Positions 6,587 through 17,141 of a stretch of 21,176 nt of DNA are shown one piece after another. The stretch spans positions 1 to 21,176 of the forward strand of contig JAHQWG010000042.1 of the NCBI GenBank assembly GCA_029856045.1, read 5' to 3'. The stretch is from Promethearchaeia archaeon. GTDB taxonomy: Archaea > Asgardarchaeota > Lokiarchaeia > Sigyniarchaeales > SOKP01. Within the stretch, counting starts at the first letter, position 1, and each line of letters begins with the position of its first letter. The translations under genes were made by a program, and so were the position numbers. Under the pieces are notes generated by a model. That model made no database searches. It was not told the origin of the DNA and worked only from the letters and a program-made list of their open reading frames with translations.

Positions 6587-8275
6587 TTAATCTATATCCC
6601 ATTTTCCTTGTTCTCTTGCCTTCTTAACTTCTTGTTCAACTCGCTCCTTCAAAACTTTATAATCGGTTTTAGCAACTCTATTTAATGGCATCTCATCAAT
6701 AAATACAATTAGGGAGGGTCTTTTATATGATGCAATTTGTTTGCAATGTTCCATCACCTGTTCTTCAGTTAATTTCGCTTCGGTTTTTAATTGAACATAT
6801 GCTACAATTCCTTCAGTAAAAATATTATGTTGAGCGCCAACGACTCCTACTGAAGTGACTCCATCCAACTTTGATATATGTTCTTCAACTTCAATTGGGA
6901 ATACATTATATCCTTTGGGTTTTATCATTAATTTAGCCCTTCCAGCTAAATGAAGGTTATTTTTCTCATCTTTAAATCCTAAATCTCCTGTATAAAGCAC
7001 ACCCTCAGTAGAAATTGTTTTTCTTGTAGCTTCTTCATTCCCGAAATATCCCTTGAATACCTGAGGTCCTGTATAACAAATTTCGCCGATTTGTCCCACA
7101 GATAATTCATCACCAGCAGAGCCATCCTCTTTCATTGGTTTCCGGATACTTAATGGAGTGATTGAGTAATCATGACCCAAATTATCAAGAATATCATCAA
7201 CTGTTCCATCTAATGGAGTATATGAGCAAAATCCTGAAATTTCTGTTAATCCTAAACCTGAGCCAAATTTAGGTGCCATTTTTGAAAGCTTTTCTAGGAA
7301 AATCCTAGTTACCTGCTGTCCTCCATAAAGAGCGAATTTCAGACTTGATATGTCAAATTTATCATAATCAGGCAAGCGCCACTGCATTTCAAAAAGCGCG
7401 GGTATCTGTCCCATTGCTGAAATTTTATATTTTTGGATTGCTTCTAATGATTTTCTTGCATCGAATATATGTAAAACTACTGCTGTCCCGCCTACATATA
7501 ATGTTGTCATTAATTGTTCAGCATTTCCACCCACATGACTTGGAGGTAGATTAACAAGCATTAAATCTCCCTCCTCGATGGCAAAACCTTTCGAAAGACA
7601 CATATTCTGAGAAGTAATTCCAATATTTGTTAACATTGCAGGTTTCGGCCATCCCGTTGTTCCTGTGGTAAAAACAATTAAAATTGGATCATCTTCTTTA
7701 ACCTTAGCACATTCAGCTACAAAAATCTTCATTTCTTCTGGACTTTGCATTACAATTATTGCTTCTTCCTTAGCTTGTGCTGCAAATTCATATGCTGGGA
7801 TAATCCCTTTTCTTACCCTATCACTGGGAGGGCTAAATTGAATAAAGTAATCAATCCAAGGACAATTATCTTTAACTGCTTTCCCTATCATACCAAAGTT
7901 AGCCACAGAGGTCTTACCGAGATGACAATACATTTTCGTTTTTTCTTTCAATAAACCCATATTCCTCAAAATTTCTTGTGGTTTAAGCCTTAAATCGAGT
8001 GGGCACCATATTACTCCAAGTTTAGCACAAGCATATGCCAAGTATATATGTTCCATAAAATAGGGAAGCGAAGTAACTAAAATATCTCCCTTTTTAAAAC
8101 CCATCTTCCATAATTTTATTGCATAGATATTTATTGCCTGATTGAACTCTTTCCAAGTAATTCTTTTATCAGCATCAGCATCAATGAGGGCGATTGCACT
8201 TGGTTTTTCCTTTGCCCATTTTTCTATAACCTTACAAATAAAATGAGGAAGTTGAGCGAATTCCTCTTCTGACAT
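6587..8275 (-). CDS. Class I adenylate-forming enzyme, acyl-CoA synthetase / fatty-acid-CoA ligase family
   Basis: P-loop FTTGTTGWPK, GLTE, YTGDLG, hinge GRAK.MI..KG.NV.P.EVE, and terminal P.N..AK lysine. Confidence 0.92.
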   Translation of the reverse strand: MSEEEFAQLPHFICKVIEKWAKEKPSAIALIDADADKRITWKEFNQAINIYAIKLWKMGFKKGDILVTSLPYFMEHIYLAYACAKLGVIWCPLDLRLKPQEILRNMGLLKEKTKMYCHLGKTSVANFGMIGKAVKDNCPWIDYFIQFSPPSDRVRKGIIPAYEFAAQAKEEAIIVMQSPEEMKIFVAECAKVKEDDPILIVFTTGTTGWPKPAMLTNIGITSQNMCLSKGFAIEEGDLMLVNLPPSHVGGNAEQLMTTLYVGGTAVVLHIFDARKSLEAIQKYKISAMGQIPALFEMQWRLPDYDKFDISSLKFALYGGQQVTRIFLEKLSKMAPKFGSGLGLTEISGFCSYTPLDGTVDDILDNLGHDYSITPLSIRKPMKEDGSAGDELSVGQIGEICYTGPQVFKGYFGNEEATRKTISTEGVLYTGDLGFKDEKNNLHLAGRAKLMIKPKGYNVFPIEVEEHISKLDGVTSVGVVGAQHNIFTEGIVAYVQLKTEAKLTEEQVMEHCKQIASYKRPSLIVFIDEMPLNRVAKTDYKVLKERVEQEVKKAREQGKWDID

Positions 8276-8439
8276 ATTTATTGCATTTTTTTTTTTGTTT
8301 TTTATTAAATTTTATTTATAAATTATTTGATAATAATGTTATTATTACGTTAAAATAGAAATTTCTCAAAAAGCTATAAAATTTTTATAATATTATTCAA
8401 AAATTTGTTTAAAAGGGAAAAAAAATAAAGTTTTTTAAA

Positions 8440-11226
8440 ATGACGGAAGATATTAGTTTATCCTTTAATAAAAAGGAAGCAGAGATTCTTTTAAATTCAT
8501 TGAATCTCTCAAAAGAGTTAAATCTTTTACCCGATGATAGCCATCTTTTAACTGCATTAATTAATAAGACTTTTAAAGTTGCAAAAAACCTCATTGATGA
8601 AAATATATACACTAAAGAAGAAATTAATCGTTGTGAACAAAAATTAAAAGAATCTGAAAATAAATATCGTTTTTTCATAGAAAATTTTCCTGGAATCGCG
8701 TTTCAAGGCTATCCAGATTTTTCAGCTGCCTTCTTTGATGGTAATATTGAAGAAATGACTGGATATACTGAAGAAGACTTCACTTCTGGACGAATTAAGT
8801 GGGATAATATTATTCATCCAGATGATTTGGAAAGAATTATAAAATTGGTTAAAAAATTTCATTCAACATCCATGAATTCTGATATTCGAGAATATAGAAT
8901 TATAAATGAAAATGGTAAAGTCCGTTGGGTTATGGAAAACATTCAAAAGCTTTATGATAACAGAAGAAAAGAAGAAATGGTACAAGGTACCATTATTGAT
9001 ATTACCGAGAGCAAATTAGCGGAACAAAAATTAAAAGAATCCGAAGAGAAATATCGAAATATTCTTGAAAACATGCAAGATGGATATTATGAAGTAGATC
9101 TTCAAGGAAATTGGACTTTTGCAAATAATTATATTTGTAATTATCTAGGATATTCAAGGGAGGAATTGTTGGGACGAAATTATCAAGAATTTTTAGATAA
9201 GGATACGGTAAAAGAAGTTTTTAATAGGTTTAATCAGGTCTATAAAGACGAGATTCCTAGAAATACTTTTGAAACTTATGTTATTAGAAATGACGGAAAG
9301 AAACGATTTATTGAAGGTACAATTTATTTAAAGTATGATTCTCAAGGAAAAAAGGTCGGTTTTGCTGGCTTTAGTCAAGATACGACAGAACACAAGAAGA
9401 TAGAGGAACAATTGCTTGAAAATGAAGATAAATTCCGCACTCTTTTCGAGCAAGCAGCAGATTCAATTTTACTCATTGATGTGGAGACGGGCGAACTAGT
9501 TGAATTCAACAACAAAACATGTGAAAATCTTGGTTATTCTCGTGAGGAATTCAAGAATATTAAGATTCCTGATTTAGAAATCATTGAGTCTCCTGAAGAA
9601 GTTAAGAAACATTTAGAGAAAGTCGTCAGGGAGGGTACTGACATCTTTGAAACGAAACATAGGACAAAGAATGGTGAGATAAGAAATGTAATAGTAAGCT
9701 CTAAGGCTATTAATATTCGAAGGAAAAATTTTGTTCAATCCATATATCGAGACATCACCGAGCGCAAGAAGGTGGAGGAAAAAATTCGCTACCAGGCGGA
9801 GCTCGTGGAAAATGTTACGGATGCCATTTTATCTCTAGATATAAACTATAACATTAAAAGTTGGAACAAGGCGGCTGAAGAAATATACGGTTGGAAAGCC
9901 GATGAGGTAATTGGGAAAAATTTACGGGAGGTTATTCCTGTTGAATTCCTTTACGATAAGACAGAGGATGTGCTAAGAGAATTCGCCGAAAAAGGGTATT
10001 GGAAAGGCGAAGGAATCCAACACCACAAGGATGGATCTCAATTAAACATTCTATCGGCGTCGAAAATTGTTAAGGATAGTTTGGGAAAACCAGTTAGTAT
10101 GGTAACTATCAATAAAGATATCACCGAGCGCAAGAAGGCAGAGGAGGAATTGATCAAAGCTAAGACCTTCTCCGAATCGATAATAGATAGTTTACCAGGA
10201 ATCTTTTATTTATTTGACGAGAAAGGCAAATTTCTGCGGTGGAATAAAAATTTTGAAATAGTTTCCGAATATTCGGCTCAAGAAATATCAAAAATGAGCA
10301 TATTAGATTTTTTTAGGGGAGAAGATAAAAGGCATATTGCTGAGAGGATTCAAGAAGTTTTTATTAAAGGCAAATCTACTGCAGAAGCGGATTTTATATC
10401 TAAAAGTGGAAAAAAAACCTCTCATTATTTTACAGGACTACGGATAATAATAAATAATACACCTTATCTTGGAGGAATGGGAATTGATATTTCTGAACGC
10501 AAGAAGGCGGAAAAAAAATTGCAAGAATCAGAAAAACGGTATAGGGATTTTATTTCAGTAGCCTCTCATGAATTTAAAACTCCATTAATCCCAATTATTG
10601 GCATTCCACAAATCATTTTAAAAGACACTAATTTAACTGAACAGCAGAAAGATTTTATTGACGAGATTTTATTAAGCGGTAAAAAATTAAATAAATTGAT
10701 GGATAACCTTTTAGATACAACTAAAATTGATGCAAAGGGTATTGAATTAAACAAACATGTAATAGAGATCAATGCCTTAATTGAGCAATGTATTAATGAT
10801 CTTTCTTTCTTAATACAATATAATAACCATACACTTGTAAAAAGATTACAAGAAAATGTAAAATTAAATATTGATAATATTAAAATATCACAAGTGTTAA
10901 ATAATTTCATCTCTAATGCAATTAAATACACCCCTCAAAATGGAATAATTGAAATTTCCACACAAATCGATAAGGATAATAATTTCATTTTTTCAATAAA
11001 AGATAATGGGATTGGAATAGATAAAAAGGATGCAGATTTGGTCTTTCAAAAATTTGGAAAAATAAGAGGAGTAGAAATATCTCAATATAACCTTGATACT
11101 TACGGAAATGGTCTGGGGCTTTATATTTCAAAAGAAATCATAAAACTCCATGGTGGAGAAATCTGGTTCGAATCGGAAGGTAGAAATAAAGGAACAAAAT
11201 TTTATTTTAAAATTCCAAACAGATGA
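8440..11226 (+). CDS. Soluble multi-PAS (5 PAS/PAC) sensor histidine kinase (HisKA + HATPase_c), HK1
   Basis: Five PAS modules ending in D(I/T)(T/S)E.K; H-box SHEFKTPL, N-box NFISNAIKYT, G1 DNGIGI, F-box, G2 GNGLGL; no TM segment and no receiver domain. Confidence 0.95.
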   Translation: MTEDISLSFNKKEAEILLNSLNLSKELNLLPDDSHLLTALINKTFKVAKNLIDENIYTKEEINRCEQKLKESENKYRFFIENFPGIAFQGYPDFSAAFFDGNIEEMTGYTEEDFTSGRIKWDNIIHPDDLERIIKLVKKFHSTSMNSDIREYRIINENGKVRWVMENIQKLYDNRRKEEMVQGTIIDITESKLAEQKLKESEEKYRNILENMQDGYYEVDLQGNWTFANNYICNYLGYSREELLGRNYQEFLDKDTVKEVFNRFNQVYKDEIPRNTFETYVIRNDGKKRFIEGTIYLKYDSQGKKVGFAGFSQDTTEHKKIEEQLLENEDKFRTLFEQAADSILLIDVETGELVEFNNKTCENLGYSREEFKNIKIPDLEIIESPEEVKKHLEKVVREGTDIFETKHRTKNGEIRNVIVSSKAINIRRKNFVQSIYRDITERKKVEEKIRYQAELVENVTDAILSLDINYNIKSWNKAAEEIYGWKADEVIGKNLREVIPVEFLYDKTEDVLREFAEKGYWKGEGIQHHKDGSQLNILSASKIVKDSLGKPVSMVTINKDITERKKAEEELIKAKTFSESIIDSLPGIFYLFDEKGKFLRWNKNFEIVSEYSAQEISKMSILDFFRGEDKRHIAERIQEVFIKGKSTAEADFISKSGKKTSHYFTGLRIIINNTPYLGGMGIDISERKKAEKKLQESEKRYRDFISVASHEFKTPLIPIIGIPQIILKDTNLTEQQKDFIDEILLSGKKLNKLMDNLLDTTKIDAKGIELNKHVIEINALIEQCINDLSFLIQYNNHTLVKRLQENVKLNIDNIKISQVLNNFISNAIKYTPQNGIIEISTQIDKDNNFIFSIKDNGIGIDKKDADLVFQKFGKIRGVEISQYNLDTYGNGLGLYISKEIIKLHGGEIWFESEGRNKGTKFYFKIPNR
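9022..9363 (+). repeat. Shared PAS module, copy A (second PAS of HK1)
   Basis: Gap-free alignment with 12616-12957; 87/114 aa identical by hand count. Confidence 0.92.
9754..10138 (+). repeat. 19-bp perfect direct repeat ATCACCGAGCGCAAGAAGG (9754-9772 and 10120-10138) bracketing the fourth PAS of HK1
   Basis: Read directly from the sequence; variants at 12976-12994, 10489-10507, 12220-12238 and 9001-9019. Confidence 0.9.
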
Positions 11227-11427
11227 ATATTAAAGAATATGGATATGTCGTATTGAAAAAATTTTTATTATTCATATCTTTTAAATTATCTTTTTGAATT
11301 ATATCTTATACTTTATAATAATGAAATAAACGAAATCAACAATTAAATATTATAAAAAATAAATTTATATTATAAAAATCGACCTCTTCCTTTTTCAAAA
11401 AAAAAAATTATTTTAAAGTAAGGAGTA

Positions 11428-14097
11428 ATGAAAAACAAAATAAAAAGTCTTACAGATCATAAGCAAGCGGAAGATGAACTAAAGAAGAGTGAGGAGAAAT
11501 ATAGATACCTAATTGAAAGATTAGGGGAAGCCGTATATCGCATATCTCTTCCTGACGGGAAATATGAATACTTTAATCCTGCTACTAAACTTATTTTTGG
11601 ATATACTGAAAAAGATTTTCTTAATAATCCAAAATTTATAGAGAAGATAATGCATCCTGATTTTAAAGAATATTTCAAGGAGAAATGGGGAGATTTGATA
11701 AAAGGCATTGTGCCCCCAACATATGAATATAAGATAATAGATCCAAAAGGAAATGAAAGATGGATATTACAATCGAATAAAGGGATATTTAACGAAAAAG
11801 GTAATATTATTGCATTAGAAAGTATTTGTAGGGATGTTACTAAGCAGAAAAAAGCAGACATCGCTCTAAGAACAAACGAAAGAAAATTTTTTGCTCTCTT
11901 TGAAAATGCAAATGACGCGATTTTTTTGTATAAAATAGATAAAAATCAAATACCAGACCAATTTTTAGAAGTGAATAAAATTGCTTGCAAATTATTAGGA
12001 TATAGTAGAGAAGAATTGCTTAAAATGACCCTTCTAGAAATAACTAATCCTATTCAATTAAAAAATATATCAAAGTTAATGAAAATGAGACAAAATACAG
12101 GAAAATTAACATCTGAAACGAATGCCTTAACAAAAGATGGTAAAAAAATTCTCTGCGAAATTAGTTCTCAAACATTTCAACTAGAAAATGAAAATGTTAT
12201 ACTCTCGACTATAAGAGATATTTCAGAGCGTAAGAAAACGGAAAAAAAATTAAAAAAATCTGAAAAACAATATCGAGAAATGATTACTTATTTAGATGTG
12301 GGTTTTTATAGCATCGAAATAGATGGAACGATATTAAACTATAACCCCAAATTTAGTGAAATCTTAGGTTTTAAAAACTCTGATAATTTGATTGGGTTGA
12401 ATGTATCTGATTTTTGGCAAAAGCCTGAACTTCGAAAAGAATATCTAGAGGAAATTATGAACTTAGGATTTGTTAAAAATTATATTTCCCATAGTAAAAA
12501 GAAAAATGGTGAAGAAATTGTTTTACAAGTGAATTCACATCTATTAAAAGACGATATGGGAACACCAATAAAAATTGAAGGGACAGTTATCGATATTACT
12601 GATAAATTTAGATTAGAACAAAAATTAAAGGAATCCGAAGAGAAATATCGTAGTATTCTTGAAAACATGCAAGATGGATATTTTGAAGTAGATCTCAAGG
12701 GAAATTGGACTTATGTAAATGATTATGTCTGTAAATATCGAGGTTGTTCAAAGGATGATTTAGTGGGAAGAAATTATCGAGAAATTTTAGATAAGGCAAA
12801 TATAAAAGAAGTGTTTAAGAAATTTAATCAAGTCTATAAAGAAGAGATTCCAAGAGGGACTTTTGAGACGCAAATTATTAGAAACGATGGGAAAAAACGT
12901 TTTGTTGAGGGCACAATTTATTTAAAGTATGATTCTAAAGGAAAAAAGGTAGGTTTTTTTAGTTTTTCACATGATGTCACCGAGCGTAAGAAGGTGGAAC
13001 AAAAATTGAAAAAATCTGAGGAAGAGCATAGAAATATGCTAAATAATTTAGATGTGGGTTTTTATAAGGGTGAAATAAAAGGCAAGTTGTTAATGCATAA
13101 TATTGCAATTAATAAAATATTAGAATGTGATCCATCTAAAAATTTGATAGGAACATTTGCAAAAGATTTTTTCAAAGATGAAAAACAGATGAAATTATAT
13201 TATAATACATTAATGAAAAATGGATTTATCAAAAATTTTATTGTCGAGCTAAAAAAAGAAAATGGAGAAATCATGACTGTCTCTTTAAATTCTCATTTAG
13301 TTGAAAATAAAATAACTGGAGAACAAGAAGTTGAAGGTACTGTTATTGATATAACAGAAAAATTCAGATTAGAACAGAAATTAAGAGAATCCGAAAAAAG
13401 ATATAGAGATTTTACGTCAATAGCCTCACACGAGTTTAAAACACCCTTGATTCCCATAATTGGAATGCCTCAACTTCTACTAAATGATAACAACTTAACT
13501 GAACAACAGAAAGATTCCTTAAATGAGATTTTACATAGTGGCAAAAAATTAAATAAATTAATTGATAATCTCTTGGATACATCTCAAATTGAAAGAACAA
13601 GTATTGAACTAATTAAAAGAGAAATAGAAATTAATACTTTAATAGACTCGTGTATTTCTGATCTCTCTTTTTTAATAAAACAGAAAAATATTATTCTCAT
13701 AAAGAACTTACAGAAAGATATAAAGTTAAATATTGATGACAAGAAAATCTCTCGGGTTTTAACGAATCTCATTTCGAATGCGATTAAATATACGATTTCG
13801 AATGGGAAAATTGAAATCTCTTCACAAATTGATAAAGAGAATAATTTCATTTTTTCAATAAAAGATAATGGTATCGGAATTGAGGAAAAGGATAAAGATT
13901 TAATCTTTCAAAAATTCGGGAAAATTAGAAGAGAAGAAATCGTTAAATATAAACTTGATTTTCATGGAAGTGGTTTAGGTCTTTTTATATCAAAAGAAAT
14001 AATTAAATTACACGGTGGAGAAATGTGGTTTGAATCTGCTGGAAAGAATAATGGAACTATTTTTTACTTTAAATTACCGAAAAAATTAGTTAAATAA
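11428..14097 (+). CDS. Soluble multi-PAS (5 PAS/PAC) sensor histidine kinase, HK2, paralog of HK1
   Basis: Five PAS modules; SHEFKTPL, NLISNAIKYT, DNGIGI, GSGLGL. The kinase core shares a 32-nt identical stretch with HK1 (10978-11009 vs 13840-13871). Confidence 0.95.
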   Translation: MKNKIKSLTDHKQAEDELKKSEEKYRYLIERLGEAVYRISLPDGKYEYFNPATKLIFGYTEKDFLNNPKFIEKIMHPDFKEYFKEKWGDLIKGIVPPTYEYKIIDPKGNERWILQSNKGIFNEKGNIIALESICRDVTKQKKADIALRTNERKFFALFENANDAIFLYKIDKNQIPDQFLEVNKIACKLLGYSREELLKMTLLEITNPIQLKNISKLMKMRQNTGKLTSETNALTKDGKKILCEISSQTFQLENENVILSTIRDISERKKTEKKLKKSEKQYREMITYLDVGFYSIEIDGTILNYNPKFSEILGFKNSDNLIGLNVSDFWQKPELRKEYLEEIMNLGFVKNYISHSKKKNGEEIVLQVNSHLLKDDMGTPIKIEGTVIDITDKFRLEQKLKESEEKYRSILENMQDGYFEVDLKGNWTYVNDYVCKYRGCSKDDLVGRNYREILDKANIKEVFKKFNQVYKEEIPRGTFETQIIRNDGKKRFVEGTIYLKYDSKGKKVGFFSFSHDVTERKKVEQKLKKSEEEHRNMLNNLDVGFYKGEIKGKLLMHNIAINKILECDPSKNLIGTFAKDFFKDEKQMKLYYNTLMKNGFIKNFIVELKKENGEIMTVSLNSHLVENKITGEQEVEGTVIDITEKFRLEQKLRESEKRYRDFTSIASHEFKTPLIPIIGMPQLLLNDNNLTEQQKDSLNEILHSGKKLNKLIDNLLDTSQIERTSIELIKREIEINTLIDSCISDLSFLIKQKNIILIKNLQKDIKLNIDDKKISRVLTNLISNAIKYTISNGKIEISSQIDKENNFIFSIKDNGIGIEEKDKDLIFQKFGKIRREEIVKYKLDFHGSGLGLFISKEIIKLHGGEMWFESAGKNNGTIFYFKLPKKLVK
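12616..12957 (+). repeat. Shared PAS module, copy B (fourth PAS of HK2)
   Basis: Gap-free alignment with 9022-9363; first ~100 nt nearly identical. Confidence 0.92.
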
Positions 14098-14228
14098 AAG
14101 TGGATTTGAAAAAATGGAAGCAAGAAAAATCTAAAAATATCTACTACTTTAATTTATCTTCTTACCAAGAAAGAAAAAAGATAAATAATTAAGGATTATT
14201 TTAACATGAAAAATAATCTAGTAGAAAA

Positions 14229-16022
14229 ATGAAAAAAAATCAATTTATCGCAGTTATAATTCTAATCTTATCAATAATACCAGTATTTTTTGTCGTTATT
14301 AATACCATCATCTCAAAACAAATTAACGATATTTATCTTAAGGAGAATGAAATTCATCTCGAATATTTTGAATTTCCGGGTTATGCAAATACAAGAATTA
14401 ATGGTATTTGTTGGATGACTGAAAAATATCGACTTTATACAAACCACTCGCAAGACGGCATTATTTTAATCCCAGGTATTAATTCGAGAAAAGAAAGTAA
14501 TGCTGAGAAATGTTTTGAATTGGTAAAACGAGGGTTTTTTGTCTTTATTATAGATAAAAGAGGGCATGGAGATAGTGACGGCTTATTAAGTTTATTAGCA
14601 AACGAGCCCTTGGATATTATTAAATGTATCGATTACATAGAACTCAATTATCCACAAGTTAATTCATCTAGAATTGGATTATTTGGATTGTCGTATGGTG
14701 GTGGAGCTGCCTTAATTGCACAAACCCAAGAACAAAGAATTCTAACAACCGTTGTTTATCACCCCTTCTCAAATATTTCTGACTTATTAATTGATTTTCC
14801 TATTCAGCATTTAATTGGAAACACTTTAGAAATACAGTTTGATGAACAATCCATTAAAAAGAATTCACCTGTAGAAATTTTAAATAGCTCAAATACTCGA
14901 AATCTATTGATAATCCACGGAACAGAGGATTTTACTGTTAAGTTAGAACATTCACAAATAATATATCAAATCCTGAATGGAGATAGTAGAAATGATATCG
15001 AATTGATTGAACGTCTTGACCTTAATCATGTGCAAAATATAAACAATGAAACCTCCTTAAAATATGCAATTTCGTGGCTGTTGCACTACTATAGGAATTC
15101 AAGTATTGATATTACCAATCTCGATAAGGAGATAAATTATTGTCATTTGTATGAATTTCAGGGATTCACTGCCAATAATTTGGAATTTTTATCCGTTATC
15201 TTTCTTTTTTTCCTCCTAATTGGCGGATGGATTTTATTTTTTGGTGATATTGGGATACCATACTACTCTGATATTCGTAATTTTAGACAAAAGAATAAAA
15301 AATCAACCCAAAATAGCCCAAATTCCTTGCTTTATTTTAAAAACCAAAAGGAATACCCAAATTTTAAGATTATAATCTGGGTTTCTATAATTTATATATC
15401 AGGATCATTAATAACAACGCTTTTATCACTGTTAATTAATCCATCTCTAATAATCGGTTTTCTTTTTCTTGGGAGTTTAATAATCATTTCAAGTATTCTC
15501 TTATTTTTAAAATTAAAATTACCTATTTTACTATCTATAGATAAAATTACACTATTTGAGAAAGAAGAAATTGAATTCTTTATTAAAAATTGTATTTGGA
15601 TTTTTTCTTCATTTCTAATATTTGGATTGGTTAATAATATTTACACTTATTATATCATCCCTATAGGAAGGATTCCGATATTTACTACTACATTTTTTAT
15701 AAATCTTTTTTTAATTTCCTTTGTATTTTGTCTAGATTTTCTAGTAATTCGGATTTTTAAATTACATTATGGGCTTTTAATCAATTCATTATTGAGACTT
15801 ATCACATTATCGATATTTCTATTGTTTATTCCGCTACCATCGTTTAATTTTCCAATAAATACTACGTTTTTATTTTGGCTCGGAATTCCATTATCTGCGA
15901 TATTGTTTACGTTCGTTGCAAAAATTCTAAAACCAATAACTAAAAATGAGCTAGGTGCATTAATTCTCATTTCAGTAATAACCTCAACAATTTTAGTGTA
16001 TTATTTTTTCAGAACAATCTGA
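14229..16022 (+). CDS. Alpha/beta-fold serine hydrolase with N-terminal anchor and C-terminal polytopic membrane domain
   Basis: DKRGHGDS, nucleophile GLSYGG, IIHGTEDFTV (Asp), LNH (His); one N-terminal TM and about 8 C-terminal hydrophobic segments. Confidence 0.85.
   Translation: MKKNQFIAVIILILSIIPVFFVVINTIISKQINDIYLKENEIHLEYFEFPGYANTRINGICWMTEKYRLYTNHSQDGIILIPGINSRKESNAEKCFELVKRGFFVFIIDKRGHGDSDGLLSLLANEPLDIIKCIDYIELNYPQVNSSRIGLFGLSYGGGAALIAQTQEQRILTTVVYHPFSNISDLLIDFPIQHLIGNTLEIQFDEQSIKKNSPVEILNSSNTRNLLIIHGTEDFTVKLEHSQIIYQILNGDSRNDIELIERLDLNHVQNINNETSLKYAISWLLHYYRNSSIDITNLDKEINYCHLYEFQGFTANNLEFLSVIFLFFLLIGGWILFFGDIGIPYYSDIRNFRQKNKKSTQNSPNSLLYFKNQKEYPNFKIIIWVSIIYISGSLITTLLSLLINPSLIIGFLFLGSLIIISSILLFLKLKLPILLSIDKITLFEKEEIEFFIKNCIWIFSSFLIFGLVNNIYTYYIIPIGRIPIFTTTFFINLFLISFVFCLDFLVIRIFKLHYGLLINSLLRLITLSIFLLFIPLPSFNFPINTTFLFWLGIPLSAILFTFVAKILKPITKNELGALILISVITSTILVYYFFRTI
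15807..16022 (+). repeat. Direct repeat copy 1: 3' end of the membrane hydrolase gene
   Basis: Aligns without gaps to 17308-17523. Confidence 0.9.
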
Positions 16023-16091
16023 TTTTTATTATATTTTCAGATTTTTAGCTAATTTAATAAGGCAAATAGAAAAAAATTAAATAAGATAGTT

Positions 16092-17141
16092 TTAATTGAA
16101 TAATTTTTGAACAAATTTGCTGATATTAGCTATTGCTTCTTTTGATTCAGGTAATCCAAAAGCTTGAAAAACATGCATCATCTCATTCCACACTTCCAAT
16201 GTTGCATCTACACCAGCAGTTTTAGCGCGTTCAACAAAAAGTCTCGAATCATCATATAGCATTTCACTTGTACTAGCTTGAATTAAGAGGGGTGGTAAGT
16301 CTTTTAAATCCGCAAAAAGAGGAGAAACTAAAGGATCCCGAGGATCTGCCCCTGCTAAATATGCTTCACTCCACCAGAACAACCCAGCATCCGCTAAAAA
16401 TGGATCTGTTTTCGCATTTTCAAAAAATGATTCACTTGTGCCCAAATGATTAGTTACTGGTGAAAGACAAAATGCCCCAGCTGGTATTGATATTCTATCA
16501 TCTCGTAATTTAATAAGAGTAACGAGCGCTAAGTTTCCTCCTGCTGAATCTCCGGCAATAATAATATTCTCCGGCTTAAAATTTTCTGAAAGAAGCCAAT
16601 TATATACGTTGATTGAATCTTCCAGTGATGCGGGGTAAGGATATTCAGGTGCAAGACGGTAATCGACGCTCAGTACTCTCATTTTTGTAGCCCTTCCTAG
16701 TTGAACTGTGAGTAATCGGTGATCATTCGGAGACCCTAATATGAATCCACCTCCGTGAAGATATAATAAAACTCTATCTTCTACTGCACTTGGAACAATT
16801 TGCCATTCTGCTGGGACTCCATTTGCATCAATTATCTTTATTTTAACATCTTTAGGGATTGGGTGTCTTTTTTGCACGAGATCCGCTCCATATTCGATAC
16901 CAAATCGATAGAATCTCGTCAAAAAGAGCTGCTCATCCTTAGTTAAAAAACCGCTCATATTTTCTCCTTTAAAAAACCGCTCATTTCCATCCATCACTTT
17001 TTTCCAAAGTGCCTGAAAATCAACTCCTTTATTCTCTTCTTTCTCCAAAAATTTAGGAATTACATGTAGTTGAATACCTAGGTAAGCATCCATAATTTTG
17101 AGTACGTCGGGACGAACCTTTGATCTATCTAAAATTGTCAA
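16092..17141 (-). CDS. HSL-family (family IV) esterase/lipase, alpha/beta hydrolase_3
   Basis: LHGGGF oxyanion motif, DYRLAPEYPYPA, GDSAGG nucleophile, SEMLYDD, MMHVF; TTG start. Confidence 0.93.
   Translation of the reverse strand: MTILDRSKVRPDVLKIMDAYLGIQLHVIPKFLEKEENKGVDFQALWKKVMDGNERFFKGENMSGFLTKDEQLFLTRFYRFGIEYGADLVQKRHPIPKDVKIKIIDANGVPAEWQIVPSAVEDRVLLYLHGGGFILGSPNDHRLLTVQLGRATKMRVLSVDYRLAPEYPYPASLEDSINVYNWLLSENFKPENIIIAGDSAGGNLALVTLIKLRDDRISIPAGAFCLSPVTNHLGTSESFFENAKTDPFLADAGLFWWSEAYLAGADPRDPLVSPLFADLKDLPPLLIQASTSEMLYDDSRLFVERAKTAGVDATLEVWNEMMHVFQAFGLPESKEAIANISKFVQKLFN

Follow-up and report, generated by a model that had tools for sequence, protein, structure and literature searches.

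Probable evolutionary exchange of PAS cassettes at two short linker blocks in tandem histidine kinase genes of a Lokiarchaeial genome, with a GC-rich codon island at one of them

We analysed a 21,176-nt stretch of DNA from a Promethearchaeia archaeon (contig JAHQWG010000042.1 of assembly GCA_029856045.1; hereafter the window), which is contig C42 of a 3.34-Mb genome (G000), 29.4% G+C, with a genome mean third-position G+C content (GC3) of 0.21 and an archaeal SSU rRNA. Positions 8440-14097 are filled by two co-directional tandem genes for multi-PAS histidine kinases, K1 and K2, whose PAS modules are separated by recurrent junctions that begin with the peptide DIT or a variant of it. The reading that we favour, at a probability of about 70%, is that these junctions are the known PAS-linker motif, that cassettes have been shuffled at their joints in the course of evolution and not by a dedicated system, and that the G/C-rich codons marking many junctions are a separate feature. 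The sequences compared show that, over evolutionary time, modules have been lost, gained and exchanged in frame one to three at a time (372-1119 nt), as have entire sensor regions, with crossovers inside two short blocks. A preliminary description of the window had read the junctions as nucleotide-conserved crossover sites of a sensor-domain shuffling system; much of what it described is present, and what we find no support for is a dedicated system and a causal role for G/C richness.

K1 (8440-11226; all window coordinates given here are on the forward strand) encodes 928 aa with an N-terminal region, five PAS modules, HisKA and HATPase_c, as established from the open reading frame (ORF), its translation and Pfam matches to PAS, PAS_3 and PAS_9. 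Its tandem paralogue K2 (11428-14097) encodes 889 aa with five PAS modules, HisKA and HATPase_c. PF00989 matches K1 in four stretches (3.1e-51) and PF13426 in five, PF13426 matches K2 (3.6e-48), and a profile built from the window's own modules likewise finds five per kinase. PF00512 and PF02518 exceed their cut-offs in both genes, and a SHEFKTPL box is visible in both translations, from which K1 and K2 are predicted to be multi-PAS sensor histidine kinases of the HisKA/HATPase_c class. Their kinase cores (10510-11219 and 13372-14081) are 75% identical at the nucleotide level.

The junction motif recurs because both genes are tandem arrays of PAS modules, and its copies, each of which we number from the Asp codon, are spaced 366-384 nt apart. 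In K1 the five junctions (J1 to J5) are DITESKLAE between PAS1 and PAS2 (8998-9024), the degenerate DTTEHKKIE between PAS2 and PAS3 (9379-9405), DITERKKVE (9751-9777), DITERKKAE (10117-10143) and DISERKKAE between the last PAS module and the kinase helix (10486-10512). Those of K2 are DVTKQKKAD (11833-11859), DISERKKTE (12217-12243), DITDKFRLE (12592-12618), DVTERKKVE (12973-12999) and DITEKFRLE, which runs on into an EQKLRESE block ahead of the kinase helix (13348-13395). This second, GAACAAAAATTAAAAGAATCYGAA-type block also occurs as EQKLKESE ahead of PAS1 (8635-8658), at the start of the cassette that we call B in K1 (9022-9045) and in K2 (12616-12639), and as EQKLKKSE (12997-13020). The six DIT-type and five second-block strings listed in the preliminary description were all found in place and in frame, as was the 19-nt identical run that it noted between the junctions at 9751 and 10117.

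Cassettes delimited in this way resemble one another to differing degrees. The B cassette of K1 (PAS2, 8984-9414) is 80% identical in nucleotides to that of K2 (PAS4, 12578-13008), more than the kinase cores of the same two genes, and the A cassette of K2 (PAS3, 12226-12648) is 67% identical to a relative, A', at 12982-13404. The K1 PAS3 cassette (residues 316-450, 9385-9789) has a GC3 of 0.31 and is considered further below.

The profile built from the ten window modules gave 57 domain hits in 17 ORFs of the genome, of which the 50 that span more than 70 profile positions were aligned. Of these, 94% carry Asp at profile column 112, 90% Ile at 113 and 80% Thr at 114. A "DIT motif" is a named feature that ends the PAS domain (PMC4810494), and the junction is the DIT cap that ends the PAS fold together with the first turns of a predicted helical linker to the next PAS module or to the phospho-acceptor helix of the kinase. 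In the commonest type of local module, the N-terminal cap is formed by the EQKLKESE(E)KYR block.

The evidence for exchange comes from relatives of the window, among which synteny with the congener G004 is kept on both flanks and the kinases between them differ. Four closely related genomes or contigs have four sensor architectures at this syntenic locus. Window K1 reads N-terminal region, PAS1, B, PAS3, PAS4, PAS5 and kinase; G004 K1 reads N-terminal region, PAS1, PAS5 and kinase; G002 K1 has a hydrophobic N-terminus followed by the kinase, and neither of its two kinase genes at this locus has a PAS module; and L098, a metagenome contig whose K1-like parts share 92-94% of nucleotides with the window, reads N-terminal region, PAS1, A, B, PAS3 and kinase. 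The K2 sensor regions differ likewise, that of G004 having two unrelated PAS modules behind an N-terminus that looks hydrophobic by eye, whereas kinase cores and flanks are 84-93% identical.

At nucleotide level the joints fall in the two blocks. G004 K1 corresponds to residues 2-198 plus 560-926 of window K1, the difference being a segment of 1119 nt (373 codons; 9010-10128) that holds the three modules PAS2-PAS4, with its left crossover in J1 and its right one in J4. The G004 joint reads GAT ATT ACC GAG CGC AAG AAG GCA GAC, J1 on the left and J4 on the right, and the switch lies within GATATYACCGAG, an interval that leaves the limits of the segment free to lie anywhere between 8998-10116 and 9010-10128. 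The PAS-less G002 K1 is homologous to its window counterpart from 10504 onwards, inside J5, and homology to the K2 genes of G004 and G002 (91-93% of nucleotides; 91% in G004) begins at 13376, in the ESEKRYRDF stretch of the last K2 junction. Relative to L098, the window lacks the A module, and J1 plus the second block at 9022-9045 form the joint in its place: window J1 follows the L098 PAS1/A block up to TTAAAAGAATCCGAA and then the L098 A/B block. In L098, J3 is joined straight to the kinase, the partner switch at this PAS3/kinase joint lying within or just after CGCAAGAAGG. Two further cases lie elsewhere in the genome, namely 309667-312288 of contig C36, two of whose modules are missing from G004 with a switch just after DITERKKAEE, and 89114-91138 of contig C51, in which G002 carries a different segment between two junction blocks. 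The suggestion that PAS cassettes of about 366-384 nt are added, deleted and swapped in frame is therefore borne out by the comparison of the window with G004, G002 and L098, and the crossovers occur in both blocks.

Breakpoints also cluster at the motif across the genome. When 17 PAS genes of G000 were compared with the G004 loci fetched for them, 18 of 21 internal ends of BLAST high-scoring segment pairs (HSPs) lay between -16 and +82 nt of a DIT Asp codon, windows that make up 14.6% of positions (binomial 8e-13); two of the other three were at the KLKESEEKYR block and one in a kinase core. Four PAS genes are collinear throughout between the two genomes. The arrangement in the window is itself not an assembly accident, since contigs from sequencing runs of four studies carry its PAS2-3, PAS3-4 and PAS4-5 joins.

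Such exchanges would arise by unequal or illegitimate recombination, or by replication slippage, guided by about 6-35 nt shared between junctions, and the partners could be junctions within a single gene or in paralogues, whether tandem or dispersed. General host recombination and repair machinery would do the work, and products would be in frame because all junctions share one codon phase, with selection removing the rest. G/C richness is not required for this, given that the AT-rich EQKLKESE block is a crossover site as well.

Several points weigh against taking this evidence at face value. The interval of -16 to +82 nt was chosen post hoc, HSP ends come two to an event and are not independent, and conserved motifs lengthen HSPs; apart from G000's own arrangement, each comparator is a single assembly that may contain chimeric joins, and contig counts point to a metagenome source for three of them; and no event is polarised as gain or loss. 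Moreover, selection for foldable proteins also concentrates breakpoints in linkers, and clustering is for this reason no proof that the nucleotide motif directs recombination. Taken to its end, this last point becomes an explanation of its own, in which breaks fall anywhere, only in-phase linker joints give working kinases, and the motif as such is irrelevant. The microhomology at the joints is indeed short (12 nt with one mismatch between K1 and its G004 counterpart, and some 5-8 nt in the gene on C36), a kinase core does contain one of the 21 breakpoints, and whole genes are present or absent too, such as that at 170600-172885 of C51, which is without a syntenic G004 counterpart. Against it, every joint read at nucleotide level sits on sequence common to both parents, and several homology ends lie within 1 nt of the Asp codon (-1, 0, +1 and -1). 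We regard selection acting alone as an unlikely account of the clustering.

Whole-gene and other large differences accompany those at the level of cassettes. The C51 gene just mentioned, a PAS kinase, is missing in its entirety from the syntenic G004 site, where the flanks overlap by about 72 nt, and for the PAS kinase at 314490-316493 of C36 the region from 109 nt upstream of the start to ORF position 1688 has no match of at least 78% in G004. Of the ten G004 contigs, four (C7, C9, C10 and C11; L070, L073, L074 and L075) have an end that falls inside a PAS kinase gene, with C7:4-177 and C10:4-177 aligning to one and the same stretch of the PAS profile. The G004 assembly thus seems to be broken up by PAS modules that are nearly identical, and its module counts are lower bounds. 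K1 and K2 lie 201 nt apart in the window (11227-11427) and 974 nt apart in G004 (L031, G004:C1:358000-374000), where the spacer is AT-rich, with no ORF of at least 150 aa listed within it.

The second property of the junctions is their codon usage, for which 2622 long ORFs covering 81.5% of the genome served as background. Genome-wide there are 19 D[IV][TS]ERK motifs in 12 ORFs, and the unusual synonymous choices pointed out in the preliminary description are real in them: CGC makes up 9/19 Arg codons (genome 4.4%), ACC 9/16 Thr (11.7%), GAG 11/19 Glu (21%) and AAG 11/19 Lys (19%). The 15-mer ACCGAGCGCAAGAAG occurs five times exactly and eight times with at most one mismatch in the 3.34 Mb, always in PAS genes, where base composition predicts 0.0004 occurrences; no copy of the motif core with at most one mismatch lies outside PAS genes or near recombinase genes anywhere in the genome. 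To call the junctions nucleotide-conserved is right for a GC-rich subset only, since overall they range from 8/8 to 0/8 scored codons ending in G or C. Within the window J3 has 8/8, J4 7/8, the K2 junction at 12973 6/8 between AT-rich flanks, and that at 12592 0/8. As for the second block, its recurrence stands and its codons are ordinary, with 68 G/C-ending codons observed against 70.7 expected, its nucleotide identity following from a conserved peptide and a strong codon bias; the sole exception is the Ser codon TCC, used for 9/29 Ser codons in its column and 7.9% genome-wide.

In the 50 aligned modules, the third-position G/C excess, conditioned on the amino acid, occupies columns 113-121 (I-T-E-R-K-K-x-E-x), the nine codons after the Asp of DIT, with z values of 3.6, 3.4, 3.2, 2.9, 4.8, 3.3, 1.2, 2.4 and 1.6; the sole comparable excess outside the junction is at the isolated column 14 (z 3.5). 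Set against each ORF's own background, columns 113-121 contain 163 G/C-ending codons where 84.8 are expected (z 9.7), with 15 of 17 ORFs above expectation. The island is about 30 nt long (codons 0-9, ten codons) and sharp-edged, with a mean GC3 of 0.47 in the motif and 0.22-0.23 in the 60 codons on either side. At the junction C36:240362 the figures are 0.86 in the motif and 0.13 and 0.07 in its flanks, and flank GC3 is 0.12-0.34 at the 13 junctions with five or more G/C-ending codons. G/C states co-vary within a junction (variance 4.29, compared with 1.86 in 5000 shuffles) and particular codons are favoured (ACC 17 and ACG 3; CGC 12, CGG 1 and AGG 2), which indicates that the GC form behaves as a specific string, whole in a few junctions and left as graded remnants in others. 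Junction codons thus differ from those of both the adjoining modules and the genome, and, as seen above, breakpoints cluster at the motif, the two findings on which the preliminary description had let its proposal stand or fall.

We considered a series of ordinary causes for the island and rejected them. Avoidance of A-runs in ERKK fails because ERKK elsewhere in the genome (n = 29) is written with AAA in 83% and 90% and with CGC in 7%, and the peptide as such does not dictate the codons, given that ERK elsewhere (n = 224) has AGA in 68% and CGC in 1%, and that Ile before Thr elsewhere is ATC in 39/252. Location in GC-richer modules is rejected as a general cause, flank GC3 being low and the correlation of junction G/C count with module-body GC3 weak (rho 0.22, p 0.16), even though PAS3 and PAS4 of K1 are GC-richer. 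A general habit of conserved sites would show at ten conserved PAS-core columns, where 87 G/C-ending codons are observed and 86.4 expected; among the 50 modules the columns Asn28, Gly36, Glu76, Gly84 and Asp112 likewise lack an excess. The preferred codons of highly expressed genes are not responsible either, as 18 ribosomal-protein genes of G000, found by Pfam, use codons as the genome does (AAG 0.19/0.19, GAG 0.19/0.21, ACC 0.15/0.12 and CGC 0.07/0.04), so that the junction codons are not expression-preferred in this organism. Synonymous constraint is rejected on two comparisons of G000 with G004, the first of 24 gap-free module pairs, with synonymous differences at 26/189 junction sites and 268/2357 elsewhere, and the second of 21 collinear junctions, with nucleotide divergence of 74/630 there and 488/4725 in the flanks (p 0.27). 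An equilibrium argument from the unpolarised differences between these two genomes was dropped, the counts being symmetric by construction. The GC island is real, and expression-linked codon choice, sequence context, conservation as such and strong synonymous constraint are excluded as its cause in G000; a weak G/C-favouring force on a conserved patch, or the spread of one junction allele by exchanges, may each account for it.

A cluster of 17 ribosomal-protein genes (L177, G000:C1:4000-23999; 6833-16470, minus strand) has a GC3 of 0.220 beside a genome value of 0.209, and no expression-linked codon bias is visible in this archaeon.

The distribution of the excess among other organisms is uneven. 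It is present in the congener G004 (158 observed, 79.7 expected, 16/16 ORFs), and a DITERKK pattern search of 121 genomes of the order gave matches in 100; in the rows from outside the genus among the 150 matches listed, counted by eye, Arg is CGN in 80/109 and G/C-ending in 31/109, and Lys is mostly AAA. Eighty metagenome loci fetched as relatives of K1 PAS3, a non-random sample of one PAS subtype with possible duplicates, show it in contigs of GC 0.36-0.50 (493 observed, 365.9 expected, 25/31 ORFs), 0.50-0.60 (481 and 387.7, 21/23) and 0.60 or more (483 and 445.4, 15/17), with 68 observed and 57.7 expected (7/10 ORFs) below 0.36. The conserved PAS-core columns of the metagenome sets have no excess (ratios 0.95-1.00), and over all sets the core ratios are 1.00, 0.95, 0.98, 1.01 and 1.23, the weak excess being confined to G004. 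The junction bias is clearly not private to this genus, and G/C is favoured whether such codons are scarce or plentiful in the sequences concerned.

Selection of the G/C codons for translation or mRNA properties, such as decoding accuracy or a set speed at a domain boundary, with recombination uninvolved, could explain why the island coincides exactly with the conserved peptide and why the excess recurs in unrelated organisms, on metagenome contigs from GC 0.36 to 0.60 or more. Both conserved Arg columns, moreover, prefer the CGN box (20/28 in column 5 and 20/30 in column 116, compared with 36% genome-wide); the Arg of EEKYR shares this preference over AGR with a third letter that is mostly A, leaving only the third-position part specific to the junction. 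We nevertheless think such selection improbable. The ribosomal-protein genes of G000 use these codons as the genome does; G/C is favoured where the codons are rare, as in G000, and where they are common, as in GC-rich contigs, and this indifference to codon abundance fits composition better than tRNA supply; ten conserved PAS-core columns show no excess apart from the weak one in G004; junction synonymous sites diverge as others do; and other Loki genera show no excess at all.

Taken over all PAS genes of G000, the conserved Arg columns 5, 131 (EEKYR) and 116 (DITERK) use the CGN box in about 70% of cases and the genome in 36%, and CGN at conserved Arg fits an origin of AGA mainly at variable Lys/Arg sites of AT-rich genomes.

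A further candidate explanation is that the GC-type junctions are decaying relics of PAS modules from GC-richer donors. In PAS3 and PAS4 of K1, GC3 (0.31 and 0.38) is raised above the genome mean of 0.21. K1 PAS3 resembles modules of distant proteins more than any that we found within the genus, the best match there to this part of K1 being 45%. Relatives lie on 69 of the 80 metagenome loci, with 45-66% identity over 119-135 aligned residues and mostly on contigs of GC 0.40-0.74, and a contig scan for PAS3-PAS4 relatives in named genomes gave only two loci, 28% identical. One protein relative, P0056, bears the source label Planctomycetota; over the first 134 residues of the alignment the match is far better than the 40% found overall, and its similarity to PAS3 runs from the preceding linker to DITERKK and drops right after. 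In another, P0014, PAS3 and PAS4 are both held in common and divergence sets in right after the next DITERKK. In four public runs the bins at J3 and J4 have depths of 123-694, most other bins having 1.4-34.8 (mostly under 30), second-block bins near 8635-9054 reach 144, and the loose ends flanking J3 and J4 are GC-rich; the spikes and loose ends together indicate that many other organisms in these sediments write the GC-type string for this peptide. The four junctions with seven or eight G/C-ending codons share exact runs of 19-29 nt with foreign PAS genes of GC 0.40 or more (200 kb), the 29-nt run being that of J3, and runs between module bodies and the same genes are about 11-12 nt. The raised GC3, the relatives on GC-rich contigs and the depth spikes, with a junction divergence between G000 and G004 that matches calculated free decay (20/166 strong/weak differences or 12.0%, compared with 8.8% elsewhere; unpolarised, 11 W/S and 9 S/W), suit the relic explanation. 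The width of the island does not: at about 30 nt, with low-GC3 flanks as at C36:240362, it cannot be explained by uniform decay of an imported module, and the correlation of junction G/C with module bodies is weak. On balance the relic explanation does not seem a probable one.

K1 PAS3 (9385-9789) itself looks like either a PAS subtype that is widespread and evolves slowly or the product of transfer between domains of life. At G000:C36:346150-346170, some 170 nt ahead of the first ATG in the kinase ORF 346321-348144, there is a DITERKK-coding string, near or just outside the start of a 655-codon open frame, and may be the remnant of a lost upstream PAS module.

What remains as a tentative explanation, and one that we hold well short of conviction, is that the island, a separate and real feature of about 30 nt coinciding with the conserved peptide, is a by-product of junction-limited exchange, through copy-spread of a GC-richer-type allele, GC-biased repair of heteroduplex, or both. 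Heteroduplex could form only where diverged modules are alike, which is at the junction. We do not read the island as an adaptation for recombination, and the preliminary claim that GC codons are maintained by, or needed for, recombination finds no support, the AT-rich EQKLKESE block crossing over too and junction synonymous sites diverging as fast as elsewhere. The by-product explanation has difficulties of its own. The EQKLKESE block is a crossover site and has no G/C excess; other Loki genera of the family and order (26 ORFs, one kinase locus for each genus), which possess multi-PAS kinases too, have none either (182 observed, 172.2 expected, 14/26 ORFs), and these two facts argue against a simple link between GC and recombination. 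Each of G000, G001, G002 and G004 retains its own variants at orthologous junctions, and selection of some general kind could be what the excess in unrelated contigs (GC 0.36-0.70) points to. No congener orthologue was found of the C36 kinase at 239226-241070, which carries an isolated GC-type junction; only a flank matches.

A bolder extension, which we consider quite doubtful, would make the 30 nt of the DIT junction a common currency for the exchange of PAS cassettes within and between genomes, including between bacteria and Asgard archaea. As the sole pairing stretch of diverged PAS genes the junction would be the site of crossover and heteroduplex repair, and recurrent pairing would keep it G/C-rich in many phyla; if true, the island would be a legible trace of how the commonest prokaryotic sensor domain is shuffled.

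Programmed diversification by a dedicated system using the motif as its site, be it a site-specific recombinase, a shufflon-like arrangement or a retroelement, has in its favour only the repeated in-phase motif and the fast turnover of architecture among congeners, and is highly improbable: no recombinase or transposase family was found in the 12 of 16 listed window ORFs (at least 100 aa) scanned against Pfam, in keeping with the preliminary description, three of the 12 being without any Pfam match, the motif core is confined to PAS genes, junction variants are stable between species, crossovers lie at differing positions and in two different blocks, and no reliable module-order variant or excised circle at the motif, both of which the preliminary description had suggested looking for, appeared in contigs of the four public runs (Logan contigs, which drop rare variants), whose joints all have 31 letters or fewer on the shorter side, and joints of that kind often derive from other organisms or repeats.

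By their Pfam matches, the neighbours of the kinase pair in the window are hydrolases, an AMP-binding enzyme, an EamA transporter and a peptidase; the same scan gave no receiver-domain gene. Between 2172 and 4502 lie ORFs of 303, 155 and 244 aa without a Pfam match, of which the latter two have apparent counterparts of 155 and 255 aa in the same order in G004, by position and length only.

The interest of the locus lies in its combining four architectures on one conserved kinase pair with joints on two short in-phase linker blocks. To this is added a synonymous G/C excess specific to the junction, a quantity that is new and simple to measure. Should it prove tied to recombination, the points of active shuffling could be picked out by it in any genome; should it prove selected, a very large domain family would be under a codon constraint at one particular position. 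The PAS DIT/linker point is also used by protein engineers for fusing PAS sensors to kinases, and the natural crossover points coincide with it. Multi-PAS cytoplasmic kinases of Asgard archaea have been catalogued (PMC10343646; PMC5847659). Our literature searches found no mention of codon usage or crossovers at the PAS junction, and no earlier description of a 30-nt G/C island on a paralogous junction; the terms looked up in PMC10468136 do not occur there.

Among known systems, the PAS DIT motif and helical linker (PMC4810494) are the same peptide in the same place, where the PAS fold ends and the helix that leads on to the next domain starts; the literature that our searches returned treats the peptide and has no mention of the synonymous G/C island or of a role in natural crossover. 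GC-biased gene conversion in prokaryotes produces a recombination-linked rise in synonymous G/C without codon selection (Lassalle et al. 2015, PMC4450053), there in whole genes and regions and here in a 30-nt island on a paralogous junction, with an AT-rich crossover block that has no signal. GRINS in polyketide synthase genes (2021, PMC8256042), the analogue that comes nearest at nucleotide level, are repeated nucleotide elements of biased composition that their authors link to gene conversion and faster diversification by a mechanism described as unknown. They resemble our junctions as intragenic repeated elements in genes for modular proteins, with a composition bias that recodes a protein region, and they differ in that the element here is about 30 nt on one conserved peptide, compared by third-position G+C alone, with gene conversion at most putative; junction strings are common to modules that look only distantly alike and their G/C states co-vary, yet orthologous junctions are not homogenised within genomes. 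Domain shuffling is regarded as a chief source of new sensor kinases, and a further precedent is the lineage-specific expansion of histidine kinases with such shuffling, established by Alm, Huang and Arkin (2006, PMC1630713), who called the mechanism unclear and queried how the reading frame survives. The kinases treated there are like those of the window in being recent duplicates with conserved kinase cores and reshuffled upstream PAS modules, in mixing membrane-bound and soluble forms, and in having no transposon or phage nearby. That work stands at the level of domain architecture, and the present locus, in an Asgard archaeon, adds nucleotide-level joints between congeners on two short linker blocks, and with them a concrete and testable answer to the questions of how kinase domains are shuffled and how the reading frame survives.

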